From: a virus
Taxonomy: Duplodnaviria; Caudoviricetes
Reading direction: 5' to 3' (one strand)
IMG/VR virus record: IMGVR_UViG_3300010293_000008
Location: 1-44,573 of that record
Length of the DNA: 44,573 nt
This document shows positions 5,753 to 37,846 of this stretch, one piece after another. The position numbers and the translations under genes are program-made. Under the pieces are notes generated by a model. It saw nothing but the letters and a program-made list of their open reading frames with translations, was not told the DNA's origin and searched no databases. Each line of letters begins with the position of its first letter. Within the stretch, counting starts at the first letter, position 1.

Positions 5753-5779
5753 CGGCGACGTCAGAAGGGAGAAACAACC

Positions 5780-6516: not shown

Positions 6517-6519
6517 GTC

Positions 6520-13620: not shown

Positions 13621-13625
13621 TCGCG

Positions 13626-14162: not shown

Positions 14163-14176
14163 CGTCCACTTTTTTT
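14150..14176. terminator. bidirectional intrinsic terminator where the two arms converge
   Basis: AAAAGTGGAC-TGAC-GTCCACTTTTTTT between the convergent stop codons. Confidence 0.85.
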
Positions 14177-17100: not shown

Positions 17101-20100
17101 CCCATGAAATTTCCGTCGAACTTTTCGCCGCTTCCAAGAATCGCGACGCCTTGTTTGTTGGTCATTTCAGCGTATTCGTCAAGCGTCATGTTGTCATTGA
17201 ATGTGCTCGTGTATTTCTTCTCAAACGCTATGATAATACGCGACAATGCACTCGCAAGCGTCTTTTCATTGAAAAGCAATTTGACATACTGAAGTTCCGG
17301 TCTTGCTTTTCCAAACGGCGTCAACAAGATACCTCGGTCTTCAAAAAGCGCAGCGAATTGGGAGTATATGGTTACGAAGTCAGATTCAACCTTATCTTTT
17401 ACATCGTCTGGAAGTTTTTTTGATAAAGTAACTACTTGTCTGATTTCGTCGACAATTCGAACGACTTGATCCGCAATTCGCGTTTTTGTTCCGCCGATTA
17501 CCGACACTTTCGCACTAAACGGATTGTTCTCAATCGTTTTAGCGAGTTGTTCGATAAGTTCGTAAACATGAAGCATATCTTGATTCATTGGCGCTTGGGA
17601 GGCGCGGTTTGACTGCGACTTTCCACCACGGGAATTTACCGCAACACGGCTGACCGCATTTGAAACGCGTGTCCGAATAGTCAAGACGAGGTTTTTAATC
17701 ATTGTTTCGCGTGCTTTTTTCTGAACTTGAAGCAACTTGAAATTAAGATTCCCGCCTTTGCTGAGATCTTTTTTAATCTCGTTTAGAACATCATTTTTCT
17801 TTTTGAAATCGATCATAAGCGTCGTCAAAAGTGCAAGATTGTTCGTCATTGCATAATGAGCAGCGTTGTTTACAAGACCCCTATTATAGAGGTCGTGTGC
17901 AATGTAAATGTCTGTTTGAAGTTGGAAATACGCGTCCATTTGTGGTTGCGTCATGTTTGCTGTATCTTGCGTGTAAATGTCAATGATTCTGTCAAGTTCG
18001 GCAATGATGGAAGAAACGTCATTTACCATCGAATTGTACTTCGGCATTCCAAACAACGTGATAACGTCGGAGTTAATATCGGCATAAACGTCGATAAATT
18101 CCGAGAACATTTCACGAAGGTCTTCATAGAAATCAATGGAAACAATAGCGGTACCCGCGACGATCTCGTTGTGTAAAGTTTTGTGCATACTGAGCATATC
18201 TTGATAAAGATCGAACATGGTGCCTTTGTACTTGAATGTTCCAAAATCAAACACACGTCGTTCGTAAAGAATCAGCGCTTGGTCCGGATGTTCAATCAGT
18301 AAAAGCATGCCGCGTTTGAACGTTTCGAATTCTTCTTGAATGTTCTTGTATAAAGCCGCTGCGCTTTGAACGGTCTTCGAAAGCAACGAGGACACATAGA
18401 TGATATTATCGATCGCGATCGTCGCCGGACCACGCTTTTTATTCGACTGTTCCTTTTGATATTCGTTCAGCAACTGACCGCGGGTGGTGAATTGACCGTC
18501 CGTAAATTCGTTCAAGAAGTCATTCAATTCCTTGAGTGTATATTTTTCCTTGGACGGGAATTTTTTCTTCAAGATTTCCATGTGTTTCTTCATGATATCC
18601 GAATAGATTGTTTTTGCTTTTTCAATCAAACGGCGGGTGGTTGCATCTGTTTTTCCAGAATGAATGATTTGTTCGAATATCTCGTAGTAGGAAAAGAACG
18701 TCGACGAACTGCCATGCAACGTTTTTTCGAACACATCTTTCGACGACATCAACTTACCAACCATCTGCGCCATGACTTCGTTCATGTAGTCGTTAAGTTC
18801 TTGATCCGTATGGTTTGTTGAAACTTGTTTCATTGCTTGATACAACTTTTCAAGCGTGTTGATTTTAGAAAAGTTCTTGTTAACACTACCGTATCCGGCT
18901 TTGAGATATTCCAAAAAGTTATTATAACGATTTCGTCCGCTATAGAGATTATCAAAAGCGCTATACACCGCGGTCGGAACTATTTTACCTTGCGCATCCT
19001 TTTCGAACAAAACGTCAGCAAGATTTCCGGCCATGTAGAGAATCATGTTTGGACTTGTTTTGAACGCCTCGTGGAATGTTTCATGAATTGCCACTTCGAC
19101 CATTCTCTGAATTTCAATTCCATTGTGGAAGTAAGACATGTCAATAAATACAACCGGCGTTTCGTTTCCGCCAAAGAAAGGCGGATTCGGGAGCGAAATG
19201 GAATATCCAATCGCATCGGAAGCCTTTTTGCTCTTGTAAAGAATGAACGATATATCAGAAGTAGAAAGAACGTCAAAGAACAAACGTTCATTTGGCGTCA
19301 TTTCCGAAAGTAACATCGGACGTTCGTACTCGTGAAATCCATGAAAATTATTAATCGTTGTATCAACAACGTCGACTGCCGTGTGAACCGCGTAGTCTTT
19401 CGAAGAGTAAACTTTGATTCCGGACGATTGGGTAAGAACCTTTACTTGATCGCGGACCTTGTTCGAATTGACGACACGTTCGTTCTTGAGAACAAGATTG
19501 CCTTTGCTATCCAACTTGAAAAAATCCTTTGCGAATTCAAGGTTTCCTTCGCCGAGAACACCTTTCACAAGTTTCTCGTCTTTTGCAGACAAGTCATACG
19601 TTTTCGCTACGCGCTTAACGGTGATATCACGGCTTCCGTATTCCATGTACATGCTTCCGGAACCGGTGCTGATCCGTCGCTGCGCGACTTGCTGCGTTTC
19701 TTCTCGCGTTGCTTCTTGATTAAACAAAAACACATCAGCCCTAAAACCGGCCTTGTAAAAAGCCATCGCTGAAGAAACACTGGAAACTTGCGCACTTATA
19801 GAGCCTTTCGTAACCAACTTTACGGCCTCAATAAGCGCGGTTCCGATCCCGTGCTTTCTTGCTTTTTCATTCACATACAACTCAGTAATCGAATTGTCAG
19901 CCGGCGTATACGGGCTGTTTATCCACACCTCAACAACTCCGTTGTCTGTTTCGATTCGAATGCTTTCAATCTTGTTGTCGTCAATTTCTCTTGTTTCGAA
20001 TTTGACGCCAGTAATGTATTCGCCGACTTTTCGAAGGCCCTTTTCGATAACCTTTACAATCTTTTGTTCTTTTAGAGCGATTTCCAAAAGATAGTTAGAG

Positions 20101-23100
20101 GCAGAACCCGTAACGTCATTGTTGTCATATACGACATTTCTTTGGTCATTCAACTTGCTTTCGAATCCGATAATTTCTTTATATGCCATCATTTGCTGGG
20201 CAGAAGGACTCAAATTAAATTCCGTTTCGGACTCATACGGATATTCGCTGATTGGTCTGAATTTACGCATTAAAATCTTTGCTTCAAAAGGTATTTCAAT
20301 CGCAAGATGTTTTTTCGACTTTCCGACAAATTCGTATCCGGAATTGATTCTTTCGCTTGTTTCAAGGTGATGAACGGTTGTTATATAAAGTTTATATCCA
20401 TCCGTTTCGTTGAAAGTAGATAGCGGGATCATCGGGCCAACGTGCCAAGAACCAGATTCTTCAACGCCAACCCTAAACAAGAAAGTATTTTCATCTCCGA
20501 CGTTGTTTACAAAAAGTTGTTCCGCCGCTTTTCGAATCGACGATTTAACCTCGTTTATATATTCCCCAACAATAGCAAGAGCCTTTTCGTCATATTCGAG
20601 AAAGTCGTATTGATGTATCGTGGCGTTCGGTTTTTCAAAAAACTTCGCGATATCTTGTCTTGTTGTTTTTGTTCTGTCGCGATATTCTTGTTCCACCTTC
20701 GAATTTAGTTCTCTGATTTCTGCATTCAATTTTTCGAAGAATTCCGCGGTGTCTTGTGGATTCGTTTTTGTTCTTTCGCGGTATTCTTTCATCTCTTGCA
20801 TGTAATAAACGTCATCCATATTCATACGCTTCGTTGTAACCGGATGAATGGTCGGGCGAACGTTGTCGACAGACTTCAGTTGATTCGCATTAAACACAAT
20901 ATACGAAATAACCGGTTCGTTACTGTCCGGTTTTCCTTTGACCAGATCTTTTTCAATGCCTTCAACCACAACAATCGTGTCATATCCTTTTGATTTCAAT
21001 ACTTTCAGATCTTGTTCCGAATTGAAGAATGTTCCTTCCTCAAGCGTCATTTGATGGTAAAATTCAGCAAGCGACGAGAACCCGTTATATTTCGCATAGA
21101 CTTGAACGTCAGAAAGGCCCTTGGTTGAACCTTTTTCTTCCGCTTCAAGTTCGGCGCGTTGGTTATCGAATTCTTCTTTATTTGCACCTTTTTCCATCGT
21201 TTCTTCGAAATAACGCTTGATAATGTTTTCAAGTTCTTGACCTTGGTACATCGAAGAAGCGCCGAACGGATGGACGATCGACTTTTTCGATTTGAGATAC
21301 ATTTTCATCGTGACACCGTTTTTTCCGGACTCTTCAATGTCTTTGAACCGTTCGCTAAAAGCACGATTCGGCGTAACGAAGAATCCGAGTTCGGTTCCAC
21401 TAAAACCGGTGTTTGATCCAAGCGCTTTCGAAGAAAATTCATCAAAAATGATATTCGATGAATGATACATGACCGCGACTTTTCCGTCCTTGTCACGAAC
21501 CGCTTCTTTTCCGAGGTAATCCAGTTGTTCGGCAGAGAATTCGTTTCCTTCACTATCATATACCTTTGTGTTTCGCAACGCCGTGTTTGCGACCGTTCCG
21601 ATAGAGGATTCGACTTCTTCATACGCTTCAACAAGATCGGCGACGTTGAAACCCTCGCGTAAGTTTTGACCAACTTTTGCAAGATACTCAAAGTCGATTT
21701 TTTCCAAGTTTTCCATGACGCGCTGGTGTTCGCCTTGCGTCATCAAGTCTGGCGAAACGCGAACAAGAATGTATTTTTCTGTCGGCTTCAGTTCGCTTAT
21801 ATCATGATATACCTTGTTGAAGTCGGCTCCATTCCCTTGACTACGAACGGCAAAATCGAACTTCCAGTCCGTCATCTTTTGGTATCTTTCGGCAATGCCG
21901 ACCAAAGAACGGGTTTCAAAGTCCGGATGCTTATCTTTTCGTTCGCTGAACTGACGCATATTTTTGAATGGTGTGTTTAATTTAGAGGTATCTTTCGCCC
22001 AAATCTGAAGAGCAACTTTGATCGGCTGGTACTTTGCACCCATTTTGAATGACTGCATTCCGATCGGCTCACTGTGAATAAGCGTCGTGTTTTCGTCGAC
22101 CTTTTTGTGGTTTTCAAACGACTTATGCCACGTGATAGGAACAATGACCGCGACGTATGGAGCGACTTGCAACGAACGATTAACAAACTCGGAAACATTA
22201 TCAAAAGACGGAATCCCCATAACGATTCCATTTTCGTCGTAATTCTCATGATTTCTTCCAAAAAAGGTTATTTCACCAGCAAAATCATAGAAATCTGCTT
22301 GATTTTCGAACGGTTTTACGTTCGTATAGCCAACAGATTCGAGCATTTTTAGAAAGTCATTTTGCGAAGAATTCGGGTTTATTACATTCAGTTGCGTGAC
22401 ATCAATACCATTCTCAACAAGAACTTCTGAAATTCGTTCAATGCTTCCGCGAACAATTTCTTCCATGCTCTTGTTAAGTTCAGCACCTTTTCGTTCTGCC
22501 GATCGTCTTTCTTTCGCTTCGGCGTTCGCGAGTTTTTCTTTCTGAAGTTCAGCGTCTTCTTTTAACGTTCTTTCGACAAATTCATCCGTCGGATAAACAA
22601 CATACTGGGCGCTCTTGCCATTGTTGACAATTCCGGCGGCCGTTTCAAAGATGTTCGGATATCTGATTTCGAGATAAGCATTGATGTAACCCAAGGTCGC
22701 AGCCATTTCAGTTTCGGATTCGGAAGGATTATCGAATTCCTTGACCAAAACAGCACCACCGTCAGCCGATCGCGCCTTATTAGTCCATTTAACGTCGTTC
22801 TTGTGGTCACGAATCTGCGTGTCTTCGTTCAAGTGCTTCACAATCATTTGAACGGCGTTTCGAATCACGCGCATTTCGTCCGTTTCAACGAATTCGTTTT
22901 CACGGCGTTTGTCCTCGTATACTTCTTCGGTCAAGGCAATGATTTCGGCCAAAAGATCGATATCTTCTTTCGAAAGTTCTTCGCTTATGATAATGCGAGC
23001 CTTTTTCTCGCCTTCTTCATTTTTCTGGTCGCGAACAAGGATATCGTCCATCAAATCTTCGATATTGTTTGCCGCTTTGTATCTCGCACGGTTTTCCTTT

Positions 23101-25820
23101 ATTTCAGCAATCCATCTTTTTTTCTTGGCGATTTCGCCGGACTTCGCGGCCTTGATCTTTTCCTCAAGGATATTGTTTGTTTCAACGAGCGACGTCACAT
23201 AGTCTTTGATAAGACGCATGTAGTGTTTCTTTTGCGACGGGTCATAGACAAACTTCGAAACTGCTTCATCAATCTGCTTTTGGCTCAGACGATTAATGCT
23301 TATTTCCGGCTTTTCGATTTCGTCAATAATCTCTTGATTCACATACTCGCGTAACGTGAACGTTTCGCCGTCGATCACAATATCCGATGAATTTTCGCCG
23401 GCTTCTTCCATCGCCTTGAAAAGTTTTGCAAGTCCAAAACGCTCGACAAGTTCCGGATTGAAGAACTTCGATAGGCTAAATTCTTTTCCGAGAAAGTCGC
23501 CAACAACGTAACCCAAGGTCATTTCGATTTCTGCCGTCTTTTTGATTTGTGCAGCAAATGTTTTGTCAAGTTTGTTTAGTTTTTTGTAAAGTCGAGAATC
23601 GTTTCCGGCTATCTTCTTCAGCATTTCGCTTCCGAACACCTTTTCTCGAAGCACGTCAACAAGTTTTGATTTTGTTCTTGAAATAGCACGCAAGAATGGA
23701 CCACCTTCGAATACGTTCTCCATGAAGTAAGCGACGACCTCTTCATCTACGAGTTCGGCGGTTTGTTTTGCGTCATTGTTTGTTTGTTTCAAGTAGTCGA
23801 TTAAAGAAGCGCGAATCTGATCCTCGAAGCCGCTTTCTTTCAAGTATTCGCCAAGCGCTTTGTTTGTGTAATTGAACACCGGAAGACCGGACTTTGCATC
23901 AAACGAAACTGAAACAAGGTCATTTACACCTTGTCTTATTTCTTGATATTCTTTCGGGCTTTTCTTCGATAATTTATGCACGGCCTCGTGACGCGCCAAA
24001 GTATCACGGATTTGTGTATTCGTCATACCAGAAACAGCATTTTGATTAAAATATAAAATGTTGCTTTTTTTACCGTAGAATCCCGACGTCGCTTGATCGC
24101 CATCAACTACAGCAACCGGAACGTTCATGTCTTCCGCAATCTTCAAGAGGCGTTGACCGTCCTTGTTCAAGTCAGAACGTTTTACCACATTTCGAACACC
24201 GCGTTCGCTGATGTCGACACCGCGCGTACTCGTATTGACGGCATACTCACCTTTGTTGATGGCCTTTCTTGTAAGTTTACCGTCAGCACTTCTTTCCATG
24301 ACATAGTTATCGAACATCGTCTTGTCGATTTTCTTCGCTGCTTCGGTTGTTTCGAATCGCTGAGTTTGTTCATTGTAGTGAACATACGTATCCAAACGAG
24401 TGTTTTGCAAAAACGATTTCTTTTCGTCGAGTGTGAGTTCGCCGGTGAATGTTCCGCCTTTTTCATTGACTTTGGTTCCTTTGGTTCTTTCGTCGTTCAA
24501 GCGCTCCACAAGGCTGTTTAATTCCTTGTGCATACGCGCTACAGTCGCTTGCTCACCGTTCTTTTCGACGGACATATCAAACGTCTTTCCAAAGCGTTCT
24601 GCCGCGTTTTCGACTGTTCCGTTCAAATACATCATATTTCCGGCGCCAAGGCCAGCGGACGCAAACGCGCCGCCAAGGAAAGCGAATAATGCGCGTTTAG
24701 TGAATTCGCCACTCCCAATCGCCGGCGCATCGATCTTTCGATCCGGATTAGACCACATTTCAAAACTGGTAGTTCCATACTCGGCCGCAAGTTCTTCTAT
24801 ACCCTCGTCACGAGCGTTTTTCATAATCTTGGTAAACGTAGATGTATTCGCGAGTTTTTGTGGCGTGTTTCCACCAAGGTTCTCGATTGCGGTTTCGATA
24901 AACGCACTCGCAATCGCGTAGGTATAAGCGTCTTGCAATGTCGATCCATTCACAACGGCGCGAGAATACGAATCGCCAAAAACATTCGCAAAAAAATACG
25001 ATTGCGAAACAGCGCTGACCGCTTGAGGACTCAAACCGGCTTTTGCACCGGCTTTGGCCATGTACCGCGCCGCCAAGATTGCTCCAATACTATTTACCGC
25101 ACTTGATAAACCTTGATACAATTCACTATTTCCGAATTGCTTGTCGGCAAGTTCAACAGAAACCTCGCTTTTGAATCCGTATGTTTTGCTGTTGTAAGCG
25201 GTTTTCAAAACCTTTTCTGCTTGCGAAGAAAAGTGTTCCTTGAACCTCGAACCACCAATCAGTTCGGCACGAATATCTTCGTAGTATCTGTCGTCGATTG
25301 CATTTCGAATCGAATCAAGATCCTGGCCCTTCATACCGAGCATATCGCCGCGCGCTTGCGTGAATTGGTCGTCTGCTTGCTGGGCTACGCCGTCTTTACC
25401 AAACGCCCATTCCGGATCAATACCAACTATTCGGCCAAGGTTGCCGGCTGTCGAAATCCCGAATTGAGCAACGCCCTCACCTACAGACATGAAAAAACTT
25501 CCGATTGCATAATTTATTTCAGCGTTCGGGTCTTGACCGTTCTTTGATGCATCACCAATCCTACGGATATCATTGCGAAGATTATTAGCAATCACGCCAA
25601 TGGAAAAAGCGGCATTGATTGCTGATTGCACGGCACCGTTCACAAGTTCGTAAATGAATTTGATCGGAAGAGAAACGACGCCCAAAAGCGTCTTTTTCGG
25701 ATTCACGACAGAATTCACATATTCTTCATATCTGCGAGAACCCGCTTTGTATGCTTCAATCGCTTGCGAATAAGCCTTTTCGTAGATCTGCTGTCTTGTA
25801 AGTCCTACGACTTCTGCCAT
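14175..25820 (-). CDS. giant (3881 aa) polyvalent internal virion/ejection protein: two HExxH peptidases, degenerate MTase, two ADP-ribosyltransferase-like domains, GNAT
   Basis: HEAVH..EEVVA; HETFH..NEVMA; ART-PolyVal-like YHSS..GFFVT..GYDTI..YIVFNANQLKS; LFRVG..PLSTF..ESETEF; GNAT RKHGIGTALI..FYKAGF. Last gene of the virion arm. Confidence 0.85.
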   Translation of the reverse strand: MAEVVGLTRQQIYEKAYSQAIEAYKAGSRRYEEYVNSVVNPKKTLLGVVSLPIKFIYELVNGAVQSAINAAFSIGVIANNLRNDIRRIGDASKNGQDPNAEINYAIGSFFMSVGEGVAQFGISTAGNLGRIVGIDPEWAFGKDGVAQQADDQFTQARGDMLGMKGQDLDSIRNAIDDRYYEDIRAELIGGSRFKEHFSSQAEKVLKTAYNSKTYGFKSEVSVELADKQFGNSELYQGLSSAVNSIGAILAARYMAKAGAKAGLSPQAVSAVSQSYFFANVFGDSYSRAVVNGSTLQDAYTYAIASAFIETAIENLGGNTPQKLANTSTFTKIMKNARDEGIEELAAEYGTTSFEMWSNPDRKIDAPAIGSGEFTKRALFAFLGGAFASAGLGAGNMMYLNGTVENAAERFGKTFDMSVEKNGEQATVARMHKELNSLVERLNDERTKGTKVNEKGGTFTGELTLDEKKSFLQNTRLDTYVHYNEQTQRFETTEAAKKIDKTMFDNYVMERSADGKLTRKAINKGEYAVNTSTRGVDISERGVRNVVKRSDLNKDGQRLLKIAEDMNVPVAVVDGDQATSGFYGKKSNILYFNQNAVSGMTNTQIRDTLARHEAVHKLSKKSPKEYQEIRQGVNDLVSVSFDAKSGLPVFNYTNKALGEYLKESGFEDQIRASLIDYLKQTNNDAKQTAELVDEEVVAYFMENVFEGGPFLRAISRTKSKLVDVLREKVFGSEMLKKIAGNDSRLYKKLNKLDKTFAAQIKKTAEIEMTLGYVVGDFLGKEFSLSKFFNPELVERFGLAKLFKAMEEAGENSSDIVIDGETFTLREYVNQEIIDEIEKPEISINRLSQKQIDEAVSKFVYDPSQKKHYMRLIKDYVTSLVETNNILEEKIKAAKSGEIAKKKRWIAEIKENRARYKAANNIEDLMDDILVRDQKNEEGEKKARIIISEELSKEDIDLLAEIIALTEEVYEDKRRENEFVETDEMRVIRNAVQMIVKHLNEDTQIRDHKNDVKWTNKARSADGGAVLVKEFDNPSESETEMAATLGYINAYLEIRYPNIFETAAGIVNNGKSAQYVVYPTDEFVERTLKEDAELQKEKLANAEAKERRSAERKGAELNKSMEEIVRGSIERISEVLVENGIDVTQLNVINPNSSQNDFLKMLESVGYTNVKPFENQADFYDFAGEITFFGRNHENYDENGIVMGIPSFDNVSEFVNRSLQVAPYVAVIVPITWHKSFENHKKVDENTTLIHSEPIGMQSFKMGAKYQPIKVALQIWAKDTSKLNTPFKNMRQFSERKDKHPDFETRSLVGIAERYQKMTDWKFDFAVRSQGNGADFNKVYHDISELKPTEKYILVRVSPDLMTQGEHQRVMENLEKIDFEYLAKVGQNLREGFNVADLVEAYEEVESSIGTVANTALRNTKVYDSEGNEFSAEQLDYLGKEAVRDKDGKVAVMYHSSNIIFDEFSSKALGSNTGFSGTELGFFVTPNRAFSERFKDIEESGKNGVTMKMYLKSKKSIVHPFGASSMYQGQELENIIKRYFEETMEKGANKEEFDNQRAELEAEEKGSTKGLSDVQVYAKYNGFSSLAEFYHQMTLEEGTFFNSEQDLKVLKSKGYDTIVVVEGIEKDLVKGKPDSNEPVISYIVFNANQLKSVDNVRPTIHPVTTKRMNMDDVYYMQEMKEYRERTKTNPQDTAEFFEKLNAEIRELNSKVEQEYRDRTKTTRQDIAKFFEKPNATIHQYDFLEYDEKALAIVGEYINEVKSSIRKAAEQLFVNNVGDENTFLFRVGVEESGSWHVGPMIPLSTFNETDGYKLYITTVHHLETSERINSGYEFVGKSKKHLAIEIPFEAKILMRKFRPISEYPYESETEFNLSPSAQQMMAYKEIIGFESKLNDQRNVVYDNNDVTGSASNYLLEIALKEQKIVKVIEKGLRKVGEYITGVKFETREIDDNKIESIRIETDNGVVEVWINSPYTPADNSITELYVNEKARKHGIGTALIEAVKLVTKGSISAQVSSVSSAMAFYKAGFRADVFLFNQEATREETQQVAQRRISTGSGSMYMEYGSRDITVKRVAKTYDLSAKDEKLVKGVLGEGNLEFAKDFFKLDSKGNLVLKNERVVNSNKVRDQVKVLTQSSGIKVYSSKDYAVHTAVDVVDTTINNFHGFHEYERPMLLSEMTPNERLFFDVLSTSDISFILYKSKKASDAIGYSISLPNPPFFGGNETPVVFIDMSYFHNGIEIQRMVEVAIHETFHEAFKTSPNMILYMAGNLADVLFEKDAQGKIVPTAVYSAFDNLYSGRNRYNNFLEYLKAGYGSVNKNFSKINTLEKLYQAMKQVSTNHTDQELNDYMNEVMAQMVGKLMSSKDVFEKTLHGSSSTFFSYYEIFEQIIHSGKTDATTRRLIEKAKTIYSDIMKKHMEILKKKFPSKEKYTLKELNDFLNEFTDGQFTTRGQLLNEYQKEQSNKKRGPATIAIDNIIYVSSLLSKTVQSAAALYKNIQEEFETFKRGMLLLIEHPDQALILYERRVFDFGTFKYKGTMFDLYQDMLSMHKTLHNEIVAGTAIVSIDFYEDLREMFSEFIDVYADINSDVITLFGMPKYNSMVNDVSSIIAELDRIIDIYTQDTANMTQPQMDAYFQLQTDIYIAHDLYNRGLVNNAAHYAMTNNLALLTTLMIDFKKKNDVLNEIKKDLSKGGNLNFKLLQVQKKARETMIKNLVLTIRTRVSNAVSRVAVNSRGGKSQSNRASQAPMNQDMLHVYELIEQLAKTIENNPFSAKVSVIGGTKTRIADQVVRIVDEIRQVVTLSKKLPDDVKDKVESDFVTIYSQFAALFEDRGILLTPFGKARPELQYVKLLFNEKTLASALSRIIIAFEKKYTSTFNDNMTLDEYAEMTNKQGVAILGSGEKFDGNFMGKLFKAVNPQDFFLAYIEVFGKGKNAKMSFFDDFFREYRKAAEMRGNLMMNFEKAYEQFLKSDTDYQKRSLERIDIAYNVAIQINEVAYSLLVKNINDEQEKLRNDKKANDPRLNELKRQLSVLYGEIQKRRNELAKLPQSDPQYRIIENMIKLLQAQVKPLLNERSMLRQQKRAASDKLKGFNKTKEIQDALIKYAASGKADQSMSRGEIISLYLSIAREIEMHKMVANGTGYNIQPTEHFSFGNQFHVFSDEDMRNKGYDYAKKNAKHFTLFAEDRQKVLDYLSTLLEAEDLEIIDFARARFDVNYVHANTIFSAKYQEDLPRQSTYIPFSTINGSYDRELELKVVNRSNVGAPNSLATATTLGATGALRIENIFGVVENATRMSANYSFERVISDWQNLLVNSSGGLTFGTGILSGSNSIFGVENNIADMIERMFMNVLQFSDLNESKVSKTFRKVLRNTVAATMALNIPSTIKQLASVSTIALKNNVNFGDMMKNVAIALATNNKYREWLMENNENFYHRAKSGNIPNLVDAIPASVLKGSEEAIIKLTRKLSASVGWFDNAVLVGAFMSICQEVERTATVPMTETEVFQKANELFKEVLLYGVANTDAAFRAHILNAREYAMKMLTKFQSENVLQVSALIRNRTMAKNGAKRAKYYGRRDFLAFLFSGLFTALVNGVFQIIRGNEERIDLFDLTVNEFLWGNIVGAIPIVNAFTNMIEFDKETGIRSTGFLPVIAGSKELETIASTLSTMYTGENIGRKVLRIIESAGMIIGAPIKNAVRMASTLSFILSKQGVDFFVESNNFFKSQKVQQGLSAAIKRGNEKEIAYYANEYFSNNSVKRELVNLLTNVPDASLSMRVDKNFRMKNKDGEYVDYKIKDSVYNRYNAQSQRALARLVTSGEYRNLVPKERLKAVQRVINYYYNFMKLKSVAYYASRGNNDMRKQLNANMEYLTKEPKYESDVVAQALRYAE
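20620..20790 (-). repeat. degenerate tandem duplication within the giant protein
   Basis: EYRERTKTNPQDTAEFFEKLNA and EYRDRTKTTRQDIAKFFEKPNA. Confidence 0.8.
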
Positions 25821-25835
25821 GTTTTAGCCCTCGCT

Positions 25836-27197
25836 TTATGCCCTTTTCATCGGACGAATCTTGCCATAGTTGTTGCAAACATAAAACCTTCCGTTGTAGA
25901 AAACAACCGCGTTGTTTTGAAAATCCTCGCCGTGAACCTTTTTGAATTCGGCGATAATGTTCTTTTGTTCGGTAGTGAGAACGCTTTCTTTCGATCCGCG
26001 ATCGAACATTTCACCACCGCCGAGGTGTTCTTTGTACGTGATTCCGTTTACCGTCAGCGTGTCTGCTCCGGAACTTGTTTTATACATTCCGTTTGAACTT
26101 TGGGTTTGTCCGGCCGCGACTTTCCACGTCGTCTGACCAGATTCCGGATTGTTAACGAAAGGAAGAAGCGAAGATGAACCGGGCATTTGAGAAACGAGCC
26201 TATAGAACTTTCCGCCTTTGAAAACGTAATAAATGCCACGATAATCAAGGATTTTACCATCGCTTAACGTTTTTCCGGCATATTTTTCATTGCCTTGGAA
26301 TTCCGCAAAAAGGTCATCCGACGAAACCGATTGCGGAGCGTTTTTCTTTTCCTTATCACTGTCGACGTCGTTTTGGATGCGAGCATGTTCCATTCCACCA
26401 AAGCGATAAACATCGGTACCTTTTCCAAAATCATGTTCCCCTTCAAAATAGTACGAAGGATCGTAATTTGGTTGATAATACGGATTCTCGGTTCCGTCAT
26501 CCATAGTCGGACGGCCATAATCGTACACGGTTTCCGGCTTTGCGTTTTCTTGTTCCATAAGCGACAAATATATAGAACGATACGTCGCTTCGTCCATACT
26601 TCCCTTATGCTTTTCGAGATACTCAAGAGCGCTCAGATCGCCCGTTTCCCCAGATTCGATTGCGAACATGACGTCTTGCGCACCTTTTTGCAACTTGGCT
26701 GTTTCGATTCCGAACTGCGTGAACATGATGTTGTTCAACGTTTCGTTTCTTGCTTTCTGATATTCACCAGAAAGGTTCAACTGGAGTGCATCAAAGTTCT
26801 CGTTGATTTCATTGATATGTCCTTGATAGTTCGAATAGATGTCAATCAAGTTTCCACTGACATCACCAATTTGATTATTAGAAGCATATTCACCGGCGTA
26901 TTTCTTCGACATTTCACGAATATAGTATGCGTCTTGGACTTGCTTTTGTTTCGAAGCGTCAAGAGTCGCATAGTTCTTTTGGTAATCGTCAAAGATACTT
27001 TGAAGTCCGGTTTCATATAAATACTTGCTTAATTCAAGTGATCCAAACGGAGAACGTGCCAAAGATTCCGCTGTTGGCTTTAATTGCCCACCAGAAACGG
27101 TTTTAGGCATATCACCCATAGTTCCGATGTCGGAACCTATTTTTGCGCTGTCGTAAACATCTGATAATTTTTCTTGACCGAGATCGAATTTGGACAT
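25836..27197 (-). CDS. putative internal virion/ejection protein
   Basis: GGAGG RBS. Q/N-rich helical N-terminal half. Directly upstream of the giant gene. Confidence 0.6.
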   Translation of the reverse strand: MSKFDLGQEKLSDVYDSAKIGSDIGTMGDMPKTVSGGQLKPTAESLARSPFGSLELSKYLYETGLQSIFDDYQKNYATLDASKQKQVQDAYYIREMSKKYAGEYASNNQIGDVSGNLIDIYSNYQGHINEINENFDALQLNLSGEYQKARNETLNNIMFTQFGIETAKLQKGAQDVMFAIESGETGDLSALEYLEKHKGSMDEATYRSIYLSLMEQENAKPETVYDYGRPTMDDGTENPYYQPNYDPSYYFEGEHDFGKGTDVYRFGGMEHARIQNDVDSDKEKKNAPQSVSSDDLFAEFQGNEKYAGKTLSDGKILDYRGIYYVFKGGKFYRLVSQMPGSSSLLPFVNNPESGQTTWKVAAGQTQSSNGMYKTSSGADTLTVNGITYKEHLGGGEMFDRGSKESVLTTEQKNIIAEFKKVHGEDFQNNAVVFYNGRFYVCNNYGKIRPMKRA

Positions 27198-27230
27198 AAC
27201 TTACCTCCAGCGTTGCTATTATTATACAAT

Positions 27231-27269
27231 AAAAGCCGAACTTTTGAAACGGAGTTCGGCGTTTTTTTT
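27231..27269. terminator. intrinsic terminator after the membrane-protein cluster
   Basis: AAAA-GCCGAACT...AGTTCGGC-GTTTTTTTTT. A minus-strand TATAAT lies at 27221-27226. Confidence 0.75.
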
Positions 27270-28531
27270 TATGGAATTTGATAATATGAGGTCTGCGGAC
27301 GCTCGTTTTCAGACGAATCTTTGTTATCAAGTAGTGGCCGCAAAGGATCGATTGTGATAGAGGTTGCGATTTGCTTTGAAACATCAACTGCTTTTTGGGC
27401 CGGCGTAACCGCTTTTGCAAGTTCTTCTTTTCTCTTCAGTTCATCAGCAATCCGTTTCGCAATGTCGATGTATTTTTGTTTGGCGTTTGCGAATTCGATA
27501 AGCAAGTCGCCTTTTCCAATAAAGCGAAGACGAAGTTCGTTCATGCCATAGTCAATGCCGACAAGGTACGACGAGAATGCCGTTGAAAGGATAATGAACG
27601 CGTACGACAACCCAACTTGCCAGTTCCCGATCGTGAATCCAAACACAACAGTAAGTCCGGACGCAACGATGGAAAACGACTTGGCCAACGAGGTTTTGAT
27701 AATGTAGTTTCTTTCAAAACGCGCTTGATCAATAGGAAGGAGTGATATTTTTGTTTGGCTTCTTCGAACCTTATCTTGCAACAAATCCGCGTTTGAGATT
27801 CCTTCAATTCGAATCTTGCGAATTAACTTCAGAATCTTTTTCTGCCACTTTTCTGCGACATACTCATTGGCCTTGTAGTCCTCGTACTTGATACCGGCTT
27901 GCTTTACGATACGTTCAACGGCGTCGTTATACGTTTCTTCATATTTGTCAGAACAATACTGCGAAAGATACTGTGTGTCGTTTTCGACGCGTTTTTTGCA
28001 TTCGCTATAATACTTTTGCGACGCCTTAAACTTGTCTGACTTTTGACTCGATGATACGCCGGACCTAAACATGGTACTTGCAATGTATATCGAAAGCCCA
28101 AGTGCGATGACGTTCAATGCCCAAAACTTCCAATCACCAAACACATATTTCATTTCGCCTTCGTATGCAAAATACCACTTCACCGGAACGAACGAATCGT
28201 CGTATTCTTCAACGACAAAGTAGTATTCCTTTCCATTATAAACGAAACGTTCGACCATTTCTTCCGGATACGTATTCGGTCCGAGGTCATTTGCGACGCG
28301 CCAGTTCTGAAGAATCTTTCCACCGAGATTTCGCGACGCATGAATCTCGCGAGTACCCTCCAAGGACGCGATGATGAACATGATACCAACCGCGATAAGC
28401 ACAATGAAGATGCCAACAAACGAAAGCGCCCAGCCTTTTAACTTCGATGCTTTGCTTACTGCATCCGTATAATTGCTGTTTGCATCGTCCGGCCGAACGA
28501 TCACTTCCGGTTTAGACGTTTCCAAAGTCAT
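27269..28531 (-). CDS. polytopic membrane protein (about 4 TM)
   Basis: Hydrophobic spans WALSFVGIFIVLIAVGIMFIIASL, FWALNVIALGLSIYIASTMF, FSIVASGLTVVFGFTIG, VGLSYAFIILSTAFSSYLVGI. Confidence 0.8.
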   Translation of the reverse strand: MTLETSKPEVIVRPDDANSNYTDAVSKASKLKGWALSFVGIFIVLIAVGIMFIIASLEGTREIHASRNLGGKILQNWRVANDLGPNTYPEEMVERFVYNGKEYYFVVEEYDDSFVPVKWYFAYEGEMKYVFGDWKFWALNVIALGLSIYIASTMFRSGVSSSQKSDKFKASQKYYSECKKRVENDTQYLSQYCSDKYEETYNDAVERIVKQAGIKYEDYKANEYVAEKWQKKILKLIRKIRIEGISNADLLQDKVRRSQTKISLLPIDQARFERNYIIKTSLAKSFSIVASGLTVVFGFTIGNWQVGLSYAFIILSTAFSSYLVGIDYGMNELRLRFIGKGDLLIEFANAKQKYIDIAKRIADELKRKEELAKAVTPAQKAVDVSKQIATSITIDPLRPLLDNKDSSENERPQTSYYQIP

Positions 28532-29048
28532 TCAACTCCTCATGCTTCTTTCGCGCTTCTTGTCGGGCAAGAATGCGTCTTTCTTCTTTCTGGTATTCAA
28601 GTTCGGTTTCGCGTTGTTCTTGCGCCAATACAAGCGCCCGCTTCGATAAAGGCGTAAACAACACCTCGTCAATGACGGAACCAACCAAGGCGCCGGCAAG
28701 CGTCGCAATCGCCATAATTGCAATGCTGTAGACACCATAAAGAATTGCCATTGTCAAAACAATTCCAATCGAGGAACGGCCTTTGAAAAAATCACGGTCA
28801 CGCTTCATTGTGACAAAAAGGAAGATGATCATTCCGATGACAAGCGGAACCGCAAAGAACGGATTCAACGTCACGTGTTCTGGGTCAACCACCATAAACG
28901 TTTCCGATTCCAACGTCGTTTTGAATGCTTCAAAATCAGTAAGCGCTTGATAGCCAAAGAACCCACCGACCGTGGTGAGTCCTAACGTAAGCGTTCCGCC
29001 AAAGTGAAGCATTTTGCTTCGCAACTTATAATGTTTGTGTTTTTGCAT
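28512..29048 (-). CDS. membrane protein (3-4 TM, charged C-terminus)
   Basis: Spans GGTLTLGLTTVGGFFGY, FFAVPLVIGMIIFLFV, IGIVLTMAILYGVYSIAIMAIATLAGALVG. Confidence 0.8.
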   Translation of the reverse strand: MQKHKHYKLRSKMLHFGGTLTLGLTTVGGFFGYQALTDFEAFKTTLESETFMVVDPEHVTLNPFFAVPLVIGMIIFLFVTMKRDRDFFKGRSSIGIVLTMAILYGVYSIAIMAIATLAGALVGSVIDEVLFTPLSKRALVLAQEQRETELEYQKEERRILARQEARKKHEELNDFGNV

Positions 29049-29673
29049 AGCCAGCGTTCCTCAGCATTTCTTCGAACTTTTCGCGGCCGATCGTCAAAAG
29101 CACTTCTTTCATAGCGTTCTCGAAAGCGACCGGATTAGTCACGAGATTCAATGGGAAGTTTTCAAGTTCTTCTTTTGTTCGATTCAAACGTGCGGATAAA
29201 GTCGAAGCAACGCCGTCGCGAACAAGTTGCGGTTCCTTTGCGACCAGTCCGAGAATGACGTCGATATACAGTTTCGACTCAACAGCGACAAGGTTGATAT
29301 GATCGCGATTTGACTCCAAAAACTGGTTGAACGTAGTCAATTCTTTTTTCATGCCAACAAGCGCGTCATTCACGCCTTCGGTAATTTGCTTAACGGAACT
29401 TGCAACAAGCGTCTGCATTTCGGACTTGAATACATCAAGCATGTTCGAGAATTCCGCAGTCGACTTCAGAAACGCTGTTTCAAGCGTCTTTGTACTTACG
29501 CCGAAAAGGTTGAGCAATTCTGTTTTCAGCGCCGATACGGTTTCTGGGAATGAACTCGTCGTGTTTTTGATCCTTGAAAGCGAGATGCCGACCGTGGTCA
29601 AAATACTGATCAATGATGGAATACCGGCAATCGCCACTCCAATCACGTTATTCAAAAACGTATTGATGTCCAT
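29026..29673 (-). CDS. membrane-anchored helical protein
   Basis: N-terminal VIGVAIAGIPSLISILTTVGISL followed by amphipathic helices. GGGAGG RBS. Confidence 0.8.
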   Translation of the reverse strand: MDINTFLNNVIGVAIAGIPSLISILTTVGISLSRIKNTTSSFPETVSALKTELLNLFGVSTKTLETAFLKSTAEFSNMLDVFKSEMQTLVASSVKQITEGVNDALVGMKKELTTFNQFLESNRDHINLVAVESKLYIDVILGLVAKEPQLVRDGVASTLSARLNRTKEELENFPLNLVTNPVAFENAMKEVLLTIGREKFEEMLRNAGYAKTQTL

Positions 29674-29683
29674 AATTTCCTCC

Positions 29684-29968
29684 CTATTTATATTGCACGC
29701 TCTTTTTGAAAATGATTTTATGTATTAGAATCGCCAATGGAAATGTTACCAATTTTTCTGGTGTAAACGGCATCCAAAGTATAGTGAGATACGCCGTTCC
29801 AACCCACTTCGCCCAAGCGATATCGAACTGAATGCCGATCCAAAAAGCAATGTACGCCCACCCATTCGTAATCATCCACGCAATAGCAAAAACCAAAAAC
29901 GCAGATGGGCGAAGGAATGGGCGTACTTTTCGATTGATCGCTTTGCAAAATTGATTAAACTTCTTCAA
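29684..29968 (-). CDS. small membrane protein, holin-like size
   Basis: 94 aa, basic termini, hydrophobic Trp-rich core. Confidence 0.7.
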   Translation of the reverse strand: MKKFNQFCKAINRKVRPFLRPSAFLVFAIAWMITNGWAYIAFWIGIQFDIAWAKWVGTAYLTILWMPFTPEKLVTFPLAILIHKIIFKKSVQYK

Positions 29969-30368
29969 GACGAACCGGCGGAACCGGATAATCAGATTCG
30001 GTAGTATGCAGATTGATTGTCGACGTAAAATTCAGAACTTGAACACGCCAGTTTCTTTCCGCATCCGTGACCGGACTATACGGCCGTCCGGTTGATGGAT
30101 CGAGGTCGCCTCTTATGATGTAAAGTCCAAGCCTATCATAAGCCGAAAGATATTTCGAACGCCAAATGCGATACTCGTTCTTCTTGTCGAAAATCGTTTT
30201 TTCGTCAACGAACTGCGTTGTTTCGATGAACGAATGCCCATTCCACTTGTAACGGTACGGCTCGATTAACGCATTTTCCGGAACGAACGTCATGACTGTA
30301 TCTGGCGCATCATAATCATAGACAGCAAGAATTTCGCCGCGAGGTCCAATTTTAATGTTCTTGATCAT
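29955..30368 (-). CDS. putative tail fibre assembly chaperone
   Basis: Follows the fibre genes. C-terminal WRVQVLNF..YPVPP resembles the fibre-assembly chaperone pattern. Confidence 0.5.
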   Translation of the reverse strand: MIKNIKIGPRGEILAVYDYDAPDTVMTFVPENALIEPYRYKWNGHSFIETTQFVDEKTIFDKKNEYRIWRSKYLSAYDRLGLYIIRGDLDPSTGRPYSPVTDAERNWRVQVLNFTSTINLHTTESDYPVPPVRLEEV

Positions 30369-30376
30369 GATATCAC

Positions 30377-31033
30377 CTAATCCAAAGTAATGACGTCATA
30401 GACATAGGCGTAAGTTGAAGCAATCGCAGAGATGGTATCAGCAGACGCCGTTGCTTGATACTGAAGTTGTGTATACGTATTTCTGATAAATAGCGTATTA
30501 TTTCCGCTTTTAAGATAAGCGTTGAACGCAATGTGCTGCACAACTGCACTCGATAGCGATATGCCACCAGATAGAACAACGGTATCGGTCGAGGTTGTGT
30601 CAACGAGTTCAAGCCACACAATTTGTCGATGGCGAGTACCCATATATACATATCCGAACACGATTCCAATTTTTTTACCGCGTGGATTTTCTGTCAAAGC
30701 GCAAGAAATCTCAGTCGTTCCATTGAAAGAAACAGACGTAAAGTTCTTAATCGAACGATAGTAAACGTTGCTTGTTGCAATAGAACCGAGTTCAAGCGCC
30801 GTTCGTGCATTAGCGGCCGTTTTTGTTTCGAGAGCGCCGGCACTCCCAGTAAACACTGGGAGGCCGGCAGTTGAACCTATTTTTCCATCGTTAGTAACGT
30901 TTCCGTGTGTGTGTGATGCCGGATTGAACGACGCCGGAATGTTCAAAAGGTTAGCCCAAAGTGTTTTTGGATAATAGACATCACCGTATGTCGTAGATGT
31001 TCGTTTGCGAATCTCAACGGAGTAAGTTGCCAT
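30377..31033 (-). CDS. tail fibre/receptor-binding protein 2
   Basis: HTHG metal-knot motif, AANARTALELG fibre motif, N-terminus shared with the upstream fibre. Confidence 0.7.
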   Translation of the reverse strand: MATYSVEIRKRTSTTYGDVYYPKTLWANLLNIPASFNPASHTHGNVTNDGKIGSTAGLPVFTGSAGALETKTAANARTALELGSIATSNVYYRSIKNFTSVSFNGTTEISCALTENPRGKKIGIVFGYVYMGTRHRQIVWLELVDTTSTDTVVLSGGISLSSAVVQHIAFNAYLKSGNNTLFIRNTYTQLQYQATASADTISAIASTYAYVYDVITLD

Positions 31034-31052
31034 AAGGCGTTACCTCCGTCAA

Positions 31053-32306
31053 TTAGGATACGATGACGAGTGCAAGTGAACCGTCAGCAAATCCGGAAGC
31101 GGCGGCCGAAGTATTCGCCGCGGTCAAATCTGCAAAAATCGGAAGTGTGCTGAAAAAGTCGATTGCTGCTTTTGCTGAGTTCGGCGTCATCAAAACCGTG
31201 TTGTCTGTTCCAGCCTTTGCTTCGGCGGTCGTAGCAAGACGTGCGATACCGGTCAAAGTGGTCGTGGCGGCGCGGATAGATTGTTTCGATCCGGCCGTTA
31301 CGTGTCCAGTAGCGTCAACCGTAAAGTTTGCCATCGTTTCAACAGAACTCAACGAAAGGTTCGCAATCGCGGAATAAGCCGGATGGCTGTAGTTATTCGC
31401 GTTTGCGGCGATACCATCAAGTTTCGTCTTGTCGGCCGCACTCATCAAGCCGGCAAGGGAAGTGGTCGAGTTTCGAATCGTTTGTTTCGTGACGTTCGTG
31501 ATGTGTCCGGCCGCATTGACGACGAGAGCATCGATCGTTTCGATCTCGTTGTTGTCAATCGAGAATCCGGAACCGCCGTCAGCCGGATGGCTGTAGTTGT
31601 TCGCATTCGCTGCGATTCCATCAAGTTTCGTCTTGTCCGCCGCACTCATGACGCCGGCCGCACCCGTAGTCGCATTCGGAAGCGTTCGCTTCGTCGCGTT
31701 AGTTACGTGACCAAGAGTGTTGATGGAAAGAACGTCGATGACCTCAACACCGTCTGCGTCGATTGAAATTGCCGTTTGCGTCGGGTGGGCATAGTTGTTC
31801 GCGTTTGCGGCGATACCATTAAGTTTCGTCTTGTCGGCCGCACTCATCATGCCGTTTGTTGATGTGGTAACGAGCGAATGTTCGTTGTCAACCAAAACAA
31901 ATTCCGGAGTGCTTCCGGTTCCAACGTTGATCAGCCAGTCGCCGGCTTGCATGGTGAACGTTCCGGACGTTGCCGGAGATCCGCTGTGCGTATCGCGATA
32001 CGTTCCGGTATCGACGGTAACGGTCGTATCGGTCGAACAAATGAAGAACAGACCGCGATACGTTCCGCCATGCGTACCGATATACGTTTCCATAAAAGCC
32101 TTCAGTTCCGATGTCGTATCATGTGTCGTCGGAACGATCGCGCCAACGAAACGGATGCCATCGAAAACCGCAGCCGGCATCCATGATGCATCGATCTTCC
32201 CGCCAGAAAGAAGTCCAACGATGTTTTCCGGCAACGTCTTCGGGTAGTAAACGTCACCGTATGTGGTCGTGGTGCGCTTTCTTATTTCAACATTATAGTT
32301 TGCCAT
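31053..32306 (-). CDS. tail fibre protein 1
   Basis: Three copies of G.MSAADKTKL(D/N)GIAANANNY.HP and a GIARLATTAEA fibre motif. Confidence 0.85.
   Translation of the reverse strand: MANYNVEIRKRTTTTYGDVYYPKTLPENIVGLLSGGKIDASWMPAAVFDGIRFVGAIVPTTHDTTSELKAFMETYIGTHGGTYRGLFFICSTDTTVTVDTGTYRDTHSGSPATSGTFTMQAGDWLINVGTGSTPEFVLVDNEHSLVTTSTNGMMSAADKTKLNGIAANANNYAHPTQTAISIDADGVEVIDVLSINTLGHVTNATKRTLPNATTGAAGVMSAADKTKLDGIAANANNYSHPADGGSGFSIDNNEIETIDALVVNAAGHITNVTKQTIRNSTTSLAGLMSAADKTKLDGIAANANNYSHPAYSAIANLSLSSVETMANFTVDATGHVTAGSKQSIRAATTTLTGIARLATTAEAKAGTDNTVLMTPNSAKAAIDFFSTLPIFADLTAANTSAAASGFADGSLALVIVS
31380..31850 (-). repeat. three internal tail-fibre repeats
   Basis: AGTTTCGTCTTGTC(G/C)GCCGCACTCAT recurs near 31420, 31624 and 31822. 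Confidence 0.9.
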
Positions 32307-32316
32307 TTCTTATTCC

Positions 32317-32862
32317 TCACTTCCGTGTGATTTTTTCGTTCAACAAGCCGCGAAGTTCAACGGCCATTTCGGCGGCGCCTTGAACGCCTTTGATGAATGC
32401 ATCGAATTGATAAAGACCTTGTTCAAGTTCGTCCGAACGACGAGCAAGCGCCGCTTTGTAAGCATCGACTTCGGCTTGCTTTTCTTTCAGCCGTTGTTCG
32501 AACGAATCGGCAATCGTCTTTTGTTGCGCTTCTGATTCTTCACGAAGTCGTTTGTACTCTTTCAGAATTTCGGCATCGTTTGCCTCTTTTTCCAAAATGA
32601 GTTTGTCGATCTTCTTTTGCGCTTCTTCCTTGACGGCCTTTACCTTGACTTCAATTTCATCTTTGATCGTTTGCGCTTCTTCCTTGACGGCCTTTACCTT
32701 GACTTCAATTTCATCTTTGATCGATTGTTTCAGACGCAATATCTCAGCGTCTTTGGAATTGACCGTTTCAGAAAGGTGAACGTCGCGTGCGTGATCCGAC
32801 TCCAACCTTTTTGCATATTCGATCAATTCCGCTTTGGTCATTTGCTCTACTTTCTTTTCCAT
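32317..32862 (-). CDS. coiled-coil protein
   Basis: GGAGG RBS before ATG 32862. E/K/A-rich heptads. Confidence 0.75.
   Translation of the reverse strand: MEKKVEQMTKAELIEYAKRLESDHARDVHLSETVNSKDAEILRLKQSIKDEIEVKVKAVKEEAQTIKDEIEVKVKAVKEEAQKKIDKLILEKEANDAEILKEYKRLREESEAQQKTIADSFEQRLKEKQAEVDAYKAALARRSDELEQGLYQFDAFIKGVQGAAEMAVELRGLLNEKITRK
32616..32723. repeat. perfect 54-bp tandem duplication (2 copies, in frame)
   Basis: TTTGCGCTTCTTCCTTGACGGCCTTTACCTTGACTTCAATTTCATCTTTGATCG at 32616-32669 and 32670-32723. Confidence 0.95.
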
Positions 32863-32872
32863 ATTTCCTCCA

Positions 32873-33193
32873 TCAATCAACTATTTTGAACCAAAAGTCT
32901 TCGCCATTTTGCGGTTCTTCCGCTCCGGAAGCGAACGTTCCGGCGTATACACCATTTTCATTCAAAACTGCGTCGAAGATATTTTTGATGTCTTCAAGAC
33001 GCCCTTTCAAAATAGAAAGCAGACTGTCACTTTCGCCAACAATCGCTTTCGAAAGCATTTCACGAATCATTTGTCCGGTCCAACCTTGTGCTGTCGGATT
33101 CAACGGCATCATGTTCGGCGCATTGTTTTTAACAGCAAGTTCTTCGGCAAACGTTAACGCCAAGGCATCGATCATTTGATCTACGGTAGGCAT
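32873..33193 (-). CDS. hypothetical tail-associated protein
   Basis: GGTGA RBS. C-terminal SGAEEPQNGEDFWFK resembles fibre-adaptor motifs. Confidence 0.65.
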   Translation of the reverse strand: MPTVDQMIDALALTFAEELAVKNNAPNMMPLNPTAQGWTGQMIREMLSKAIVGESDSLLSILKGRLEDIKNIFDAVLNENGVYAGTFASGAEEPQNGEDFWFKIVD

Positions 33194-36807: not shown

Positions 36808-37509
36808 CTATTTACCAAAAATCGGTGAACGCTTGACTTTAGTTTGAGTGATGATGGACGGGTTGCGAAGACCCGCGCAAAAGGCGATGTATTCTCTTTT
36901 TGCACTTTGTGCCAACGAGGCCTCGTCCTCTTCATACAATTCGCCTTTTACGTAAAACGGAATCTTGCGCTGGACCTCTTCCGGAAGAAAAAGCGTATTG
37001 AGGTCGAACGTCAGTTCATTCACCGGATAAGGAAGATTCAATTTTTTCATTCGATAGAACACACGGAATTTAACCGATACATCGGTATACTGCGTGTAAT
37101 GTAACAAGACGTCGCGATCCAAAAACTCAAGTTTCATAGTAATTGGATCGAACGAAAAATTGACCGCGTTCATGGTTTGCGCCAGTTGGTTTCCGGAATT
37201 TTTGACAAGATAAATCAGAATGTCGACGCGGGTTGGATACCCAAAGTCACTCGGAAAACCGTAAATATAGTTTTGCCGAACGTTGTCTATAACATGAAGT
37301 TCTTTTTCTGTGAAGCGCTGCCATTCGCCTACATAACTATAATACAAGTCGATAGCGCGACGTATACTGTCGTCCATTCGAACAAGTTTTTCTGCAGTGT
37401 TTGCATTCAATCGGATGGATCCGTTTGTGAATTCTGCTTCACTGAATTGAATGTCCGAATCAGCAAACATCAATCGAAGCGATTGCGCTTTGATATCCCA
37501 AAGTTTCAT
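36808..37509 (-). CDS. putative head-tail adaptor
   Basis: Size and position between the capsid module and the nozzle gene. Confidence 0.6.
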   Translation of the reverse strand: MKLWDIKAQSLRLMFADSDIQFSEAEFTNGSIRLNANTAEKLVRMDDSIRRAIDLYYSYVGEWQRFTEKELHVIDNVRQNYIYGFPSDFGYPTRVDILIYLVKNSGNQLAQTMNAVNFSFDPITMKLEFLDRDVLLHYTQYTDVSVKFRVFYRMKKLNLPYPVNELTFDLNTLFLPEEVQRKIPFYVKGELYEEDEASLAQSAKREYIAFCAGLRNPSIITQTKVKRSPIFGK

Positions 37510-37775
37510 GACGGCCTTCCTTTCACGTCGACAAGAACGCCTTTCTGTTTGATCAGATTCGTATTTACGCGTTCTTTGTACGCGCGATACGATATTGGTG
37601 TAATGTTGACATTTGGTTTGTCTTCCGGATTCATATATTGCGGGTATAGTTGTTTGCAGTCGCTTATGATTTGCGCGTGGTTTCCGCCCTTAAAATAGGT
37701 GATGAGGCTTTTCTGACCTTCACGAATAATAGCCAAAGACTTTATCTCAACCTCATACAGTTTATGCTTGTCCAA
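37506..37775 (-). CDS. hypothetical protein (probable TTG start at 37775)
   Basis: GGTGA RBS. Longer starts would run into the promoter and terminator. Confidence 0.55.
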   Translation of the reverse strand: MDKHKLYEVEIKSLAIIREGQKSLITYFKGGNHAQIISDCKQLYPQYMNPEDKPNVNITPISYRAYKERVNTNLIKQKGVLVDVKGRPS

Positions 37776-37797
37776 AACGATCACCATCCATGCGCTT

Positions 37798-37806
37798 ATT
37801 ATAACA
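37798..37806 (-). promoter_or_regulatory. extended -10 promoter (TGTTATAAT)
   Basis: Immediately downstream of the capsid-operon terminator. Confidence 0.55.
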
Positions 37807-37807
37807 T

Positions 37808-37846
37808 AAAAAAGAAAAAACCGCACCATTCGGCACGGTTTTTTTT
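37808..37846 (-). terminator. intrinsic terminator of the capsid operon
   Basis: Minus strand AACCGTGCC-GAAT-GGTGCGGTT followed by a long U-tract. Confidence 0.8.

Follow-up and report, generated by a model that had tools for sequence, protein, structure and literature searches.

How does a tailed phage leave its host when its genome encodes no recognizable endolysin? The question is raised by four consecutive membrane-protein genes (27269..29968, minus strand) in virus record IMGVR_UViG_3300010293_000008 (Caudoviricetes), a single record of 44,573 bp analyzed here at its full length and called the window. A preliminary description of this DNA took the block for a possible four-gene system of membrane-only egress or membrane remodeling in a phage of a wall-less host. 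We find that the genes for its 215-, 178- and 420-amino-acid (aa) proteins (M215, M178 and M420) keep a fixed order and form a real and conserved membrane module of three genes, the triad, which had no name before and belongs to tailed phages without a recognizable endolysin; the gene for the 94-aa protein (M94) is optional and mobile, so that the proposed unit stands for three of its members and not for the fourth. As to function, we see even chances that the triad is a membrane-only lysis complex, breaching the host cytoplasmic membrane late in infection.

Three core membrane proteins and an optional fourth

All four open reading frames (ORFs) lie on the minus strand and are read in the order M94 (29684..29968), M215 (29026..29673), M178 (28512..29048) and M420 (27269..28531). 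M94 overlaps the gene upstream of it by 14 nucleotides (nt); a 10-nt gap leads to M215, and overlaps of 23 and 20 nt join M215 to M178 and M178 to M420, for which the overlap alignment allows a TTG start at 28525. Family-averaged hydropathy assigns two transmembrane (TM) segments to M94 (possibly three), one to M215, four to M178 (two of them weak) and four to M420. The inventory in the preliminary description is therefore sound in its four consecutive membrane ORFs, its TM counts (2-3, 1, 3-4 and 4) and its tight coupling. The terminator said to close the block corresponds to a 10-pair hairpin at 27235-27260, though predicted terminators in the window are near chance in number (17, against 10.5 +/- 3.6 in shuffles, a modest excess). 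TGA, as also described, is used as a stop (14 of 43 window genes), which indicates the standard genetic code.

M215, core subunit 1 (alignment A10, hydropathy), is a single-pass protein with its TM segment at about residues 14-32 and a long helical region that is probably cytoplasmic; many homologues have in addition a signal-peptide-like N-terminus and a short acidic ectodomain. M178, core subunit 2 (alignment A9), combines its three to four TM segments with a charged C-terminal helix. M420, core subunit 3, was characterized from its homologues, its charge distribution and an AlphaFold2 model (pLDDT 77.5, pTM 0.63), and has TM spans at about 39-57, 138-156, 284-302 and 306-324. The loop at 57-132 is acidic (8 K/R, 13 D/E) and beta-rich and is not present in relatives of about 300 aa; that at 154-281 is basic (27 K/R, 18 D/E) and helical. 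Because of this charge distribution, M420 is predicted to have its N-terminus inside, the large loop in the cytoplasm and the 57-132 loop outside, and it is our candidate for the lesion-forming subunit.

Conservation separates core from accessory. M420 has 39 close homologues, and an alignment profile retrieved 58 loci besides the window's own, near-duplicates included. Where enough upstream sequence was present to be informative (at least 300 nt for M178, at least 1000 nt for M215), M420 directly follows an M178-type gene in 47 of 47 loci, and the gene two places upstream of M420 is of M215 type in 43 of 43. Upstream neighbors of the triad vary and are either fiber-like or under about 125 aa. 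M94 homologues occur in 14 of the 58 loci and at varying genome positions: in the complete relatives G001 and G002 (E 1e-7 and 6e-8) beyond the giant ejection gene, and in locus L090 after the minor capsid gene. Divergent M178 forms are tied to their family by hidden Markov models (E about 1e-5 to 2e-3), and divergent M215 forms more weakly, by an hhalign probability of 64% or by position and architecture alone. The M420 profile search reached 219 representatives (50% identity) at E<=0.001, mostly forms of about 300 aa without the outer loop, and hhalign (98.5-99.9%) places long and short forms in one family. Short-form loci (G005, G407, G408, L092) retain the three-gene order across 26-53% GC, with distant triad phages at 26% (G005), 34% (G407) and 53% (G408).

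M178-type proteins end in Gly-x-Val-stop at all 27 distinct junctions, and also in the distant loci L087, L092 and L093. An ATG, in most cases the one that starts the following gene, overlaps this end at 23 of the 27. That the motif is a mere by-product of gene overlap was considered and rejected, since the base that specifies Val falls at a wobble position left free by the overlapping frame, yet it is G at 27 of 27 junctions, against a background of 745 in 6146 four-fold sites of M420 genes (12%), and since the motif outlasts the ATG, being retained where the ATG is missing or opens a frame of only a few codons. The conserved wobble G, together with retention of the motif where no overlapping start exists, points to a role at the protein level, with the M178 C-terminus as a putative docking peptide.

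The triad families have no Pfam, PHROG or PDB assignment. A one-protein scan of viral contigs found no relatives, which required alignment profiles, and five triad queries found no homologue among 50,697 GenBank phage records. The best PDB match by sequence has E 0.29, and by structure (Foldseek) there were none at E<=0.001. The large pore that the preliminary description conjectured for M420 would have no match, in that search, among solved four-TM large-pore channels such as the innexin and CALHM types. ESM Atlas returned only unnamed clusters for M420 and M178, scoring at most 0.80 and with TM-scores below 0.5. The sole significant structural neighbors are uncharacterized BFVD proteins of about 300 aa from uncultured Siphoviridae/Podoviridae sp. 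(A0A2Z4GU85, A0A8S5M2A9, A0A8S5M9I1, A0A8S5S6F4; E 5e-6 to 1e-3, TM-score by target 0.45-0.57). PADLOC defense-effector models gave no match at E<=0.1 for nine of ten proteins, all four window proteins included, and one weak 2TM match (E 0.0035) for L090. MotA/ExbB/TolQ complexes resemble M420 in four-TM spacing, in a cytoplasmic domain between TM2 and TM3 and in a single-pass partner gene nearby, but kinship with MotA/ExbB was rejected: no PF01618 match was found in 95 homologues, none in the PDB, and hhalign against seven MotA-family proteins gave 0.5-1.3%, versus 98.5-99.9% within the family. In the accessible literature on lysis in phages of wall-less hosts, mostly without subscription journals, the module is not described.

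Lysis genes and the position of the triad

The claim that no endolysin is visible was examined in 43 tiling ORFs of the window (of 209 six-frame ORFs), and none of the 43, the two ejection-type proteins included, matched a PHROG or Pfam lysis family at E<=0.01. Nor did complete relatives reveal an endolysin in the part of the genome that the window lacks, an outcome that the preliminary description had named as refuting it. Both complete relatives, G001 (49,324 bp) and G002 (50,803 bp), carry the triad and are collinear with the window, and each has direct terminal repeats; together they show no lysis family in Pfam (75 ORFs) or PHROGs (66 ORFs), in scans that skipped most ORFs already matched to annotated window genes. 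The triad-bearing provirus G408, 98% complete, likewise shows none in 46 ORFs (Pfam) or 30 ORFs (PHROGs). Elsewhere there was no lysin in 92 neighboring proteins of the other loci (one representative per cluster) or in the 38 proteins of G005. Routine pairing of homologous clusters with endolysins, a second outcome that the preliminary description foresaw as telling against it, was not seen at any triad-bearing locus scanned, and none of the giant ejection-type proteins scanned has a virion-associated peptidoglycan hydrolase. In G002, an early gene of 555 aa that neighbors an AAA ATPase gave a weak PHROG 'peptidase' match (E 3.6e-5 over 35 residues), which we did not count as a lysin. Holin families were not matched by the four window proteins in PHROGs or Pfam, and the 95 M420 homologues gave one sub-cutoff match each to Phage_holin_3_6 and Antiholin.

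These negatives can be set against related phages. A search with the P22-like portal of G408 found related podoviral prophages in 4 of 401 Bacillota genomes, all murA-positive. All four of these walled-host prophages encode an endolysin (Amidase_2, Amidase_3 twice and an M15 peptidase), accompanied in one case by Phage_holin_4_1, and all of them lack the triad. Because all four controls were positive, the same scans do detect lysins in this broad phage group. Bacillota holin-endolysin cassettes, such as the Phage_holin_4_1 and Amidase_3 pair in the related prophage of G343, are likewise late-operon membrane genes in the same broad podovirus group, and share with the triad the presumed job of ending infection. 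The triad differs in having three fixed subunits, no endolysin and no holin family match, and in the size of its largest protein (290-420 aa, with a large soluble domain).

The triad is also found after the fiber genes in a second virion type (G003, L008, L041). G003 has an SPP1-like portal, Phage_min_cap2, a Prp protease and a scaffold, with no long tape measure gene. In L008, L010, L012 and L013, which carry the G003 triad variant, and in L041, the triad ends the late operon and is followed by helix-turn-helix (HTH) or integrase genes. Temperate Bacillota phages usually keep their lysis genes at the end of the late operon; because the triad is terminal in late operons of this second type, it both spans virion types and sits at the usual position of a lysis cassette. 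SPP1-like head genes with only a 137-162-aa gene at the tape-measure place are seen in G003 (L066:9849-14633), L034, L090 and L091, which suggests a very short tail for the G003-type virion, and L034 combines this SPP1-like module with podovirus-type ejection genes.

Genomic surroundings

The window has no terminal repeat, and its complete relatives are about 5 kb longer, the additional region holding early genes that include an AAA ATPase. The plus-strand arm encodes replication and modification functions (methylases, SNF2, Sak, exonuclease, primase-helicase, VRR-NUC). On the minus strand, small and large terminase, presumed portal, scaffold, capsid, a 1188-aa nozzle-like protein and fibers are followed by the four membrane genes, a 453-aa protein and a 3881-aa polyvalent protein. 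This order is a podovirus layout, in which the portal, capsid, nozzle and ejection roles are putative assignments from position, size and annotated relatives. Fiber and fiber-associated genes upstream of the membrane block (29955..33193, minus) were recognized by fiber-type repeats and a weak PF11133 match, and the ejection role of the 453- and 3881-aa proteins downstream (14175..27197, minus) is suggested by position and size. The 3881-aa protein (14175-25820, minus) contains ART-PolyVal (1443-1656) and GNAT (about 1960-2030) domains and matches no peptidoglycan hydrolase; its relatives range from 2000 to over 4400 aa, with central domains swapped (MuF_C, LPD3, DUF3990). Between membrane and ejection genes, a region on neither strand in particular (27221..27260) holds the hairpin, which probably terminates transcription in both directions, and, overlapping it, a promoter-like site directed toward the ejection genes. 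Both features are consensus matches: the terminator scan places the hairpin on the plus strand with a T10 tail, and the minus strand continues with TTTTATT and an extended -10-like element.

Three kinds of cassette were observed upstream of the triad in relatives. A small, very basic gene pair (91 and 52 aa; phrog_7595 and phrog_16028, function unknown) lies just upstream at L061:11355-11782 and in L003, L017, L018, L025, L037, L040 and L053. An RVT_1 reverse transcriptase with a 105-118-aa gene, possibly a diversity-generating retroelement, stands directly upstream of the membrane cassette and after fiber-like genes (L001:912-1931, L008:321-1340, L092:775-1782). In G005 (L069:13833-17128), six genes of unknown function, including phrog_21718, 16490 and 3754, separate fibers from triad and encode Gln/Asn-rich, Gly-rich and Cys-rich proteins. 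Solo four-TM homologues lie between major capsid and head-tail adaptor genes at L090:10001-10960 and L091:9983-10918, each just after a conserved 73-aa gene, and in both loci an insertion of early-type genes separates minor capsid from scaffold; in G409 the sequence upstream of the four-TM gene is missing. Lipoprotein-like morons, candidates for superinfection exclusion, occur at L066:1272-1814, L079:2128-2631, L094:16468-17046 and L096:4250-5056, two of the four inside or just before packaging genes; a phage lipoprotein search found only unnamed phage-like relatives. The last gene of the window's replication arm (13584-14162, plus; 192 aa) codes for a single hydrophobic segment (32-50) and lacks a homologue in G001 and G002, both of which encode a pyrimidine-dimer DNA glycosylase (L060:7147-7629, L064:9338-9868) not found in the window. 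An apparent N-terminal TM segment in ORF 37506-37829 is probably a start-codon artifact, its homologues being 91-98 aa without one.

Host, competing explanations and significance

A membrane-only lysis complex could work as follows. M215, M178 and M420 would be co-translated late and assemble in the membrane, where M420 would oligomerize and form the lesion, with M178 docking as its partner through the Gly-x-Val end; M215 may be a single-pass timing, regulatory or tethering subunit, and M94 a dispensable accessory. Rupture of a bare membrane would free the virions and, in a host with little or no peptidoglycan, would be enough. Such a wall-less or wall-poor host is likely but unproven; consistent with it are the lack of endolysin and virion hydrolase matches, the standard code (necessary, not sufficient, for an Acholeplasmatales-type host), Bacillota-type genes (such as Prp), the 28-41% GC of loci L001-L059 and a Bacilli label. 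Orders such as Acholeplasmatales, RFN20 and ML615J-28 are predicted, in the accessible part of PMC10868615, to mix thin-walled and wall-less species, so that 'reduced wall' is a safer guess than 'Acholeplasma'. The available portion of PMC12306168 is silent on wall loss in Clostridia. A profile search of 401 genomes of the phylum of G006 gave three weak matches only (E 4e-6 to 5e-4), in uninspected ORFs of 896, 869 and 327 aa; this sample is wall-bearing, with murA in 14 of 15 small genomes and mraY in the 15th. There were no matches for a Mollicutes 16S primer in a wall-bearing Bacillota sample (0/251), for the profile in the order of G308 (0/51) or for the GNAT flanking G408 (0/301).

Several observations count against a lysis complex for wall-less hosts. 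The Acholeplasmatales-type host of the preliminary description is no more than a candidate; genome labels on homologue-bearing contigs are mixed ('Bacilli bacterium', 'Clostridia bacterium', 'Crenarchaeota archaeon', 'Syntrophomonadaceae bacterium') and some point to walled groups. The Clostridia, Syntrophomonadaceae and archaeal labels may reflect misbinned phage contigs; the Syntrophomonadaceae-labeled contig is only 3.5 kb, and its genome has mraY. GC is 44% in the window and 53% in G408, above that of typical Acholeplasma. On the portal tree, triad and endolysin phages are parted by a single split (100/100), and the four control prophages therefore amount to one contrast, not to independent replacements; their lysis genes, moreover, follow the ejection genes and do not precede them. 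In G410 and G411 (30% and 56% complete) the four-TM gene stands alone among head genes (capsid/head-tail), with no M178 or M215 neighbor. L012 carries an Amidoligase_2 and gamma-glutamyl cyclotransferase (GGCT) pair downstream of its triad (5360-6756), which we take to be possibly wall-modifying, and an endolysin of unrecognized fold may exist in triad phages. On balance, the contrast between triad and endolysins favors the egress half of the preliminary reading and leaves its host half unshown.

Other explanations use much of the same evidence. The triad could be a budding or vesicle scaffold that brings completed virions to a wall-less host's membrane for release in blebs and not through a pore, an idea that we think improbable yet ahead of the other alternatives. 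According to the accessible part of PMC13375369, L3, SpV3 and ai, podoviruses that infect wall-less Acholeplasma and Spiroplasma, leave slowly in a budding-like manner, a precedent that serves the lysis complex as well. These phages are like the triad group in podovirus morphology and in genome size (39 kb for L3, 38-51 kb for the group), and their exit without wall lysis is a presumed likeness to the triad phages. A simple holin would, moreover, need less machinery than three coupled subunits whose helical domains, predicted to be cytoplasmic, are large. Speaking against budding are the GenBank null result and the lack of any significant structural match to membrane-remodeling proteins; that part of PMC13375369 names no exit genes, never uses the word 'holin' and gives no accession for L3, and the available part of PMC12474301 adds nothing further on exit genes.

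A walled variant, in which a holin-like system of a thin-walled host is paired with a host autolysin or a phage hydrolase of unrecognized fold, seems a little less probable again. The Clostridia and Syntrophomonadaceae labels, the thin-walled members of orders near Acholeplasmatales and the many small ORFs without assignment would suit it, but no soluble enzyme-sized ORF is conserved beside the triad, and the related walled-host prophages carry ordinary, easily detected endolysins. We regard with equal reserve the proposal that the triad serves not exit but DNA entry, as part of an ejection conduit, or superinfection exclusion. It draws on the position of the triad directly upstream of ejection-type genes in all podovirus-type carriers, some without a gap, on the four-TM genes among head genes in G410 and G411, and on the variable outer loop, which could sense incoming virions. 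The triad is, however, also present in the virion type without downstream ejection genes (L008, L041), the hairpin parts it from the ejection genes in the window, the separate lipoprotein morons fit exclusion better, and complete phages would be left without any exit gene.

Tailed-phage exit from wall-less bacteria is poorly understood, and the triad offers a concrete, expressible three-gene candidate, comprising at least three new membrane protein families. It could also become a genomic marker for phages of wall-deficient hosts. Should its products permeabilize membranes without any enzyme, they would constitute a new class of phage lysis machine. A broader picture, which we hold tentatively and with somewhat less confidence than the lysis complex itself, is that a widespread tailed-phage lineage, podovirus and short-tailed, lytic and temperate, swapped holin and endolysin for a dedicated three-subunit machine with a new fold, which would break the bare membrane of wall-less Bacillota or bud through it. 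If true, the machine would be the first exit system known in molecular terms from tailed phages with wall-less hosts, and proviruses of 53% GC would flag further unrecognized wall-deficient host lineages.

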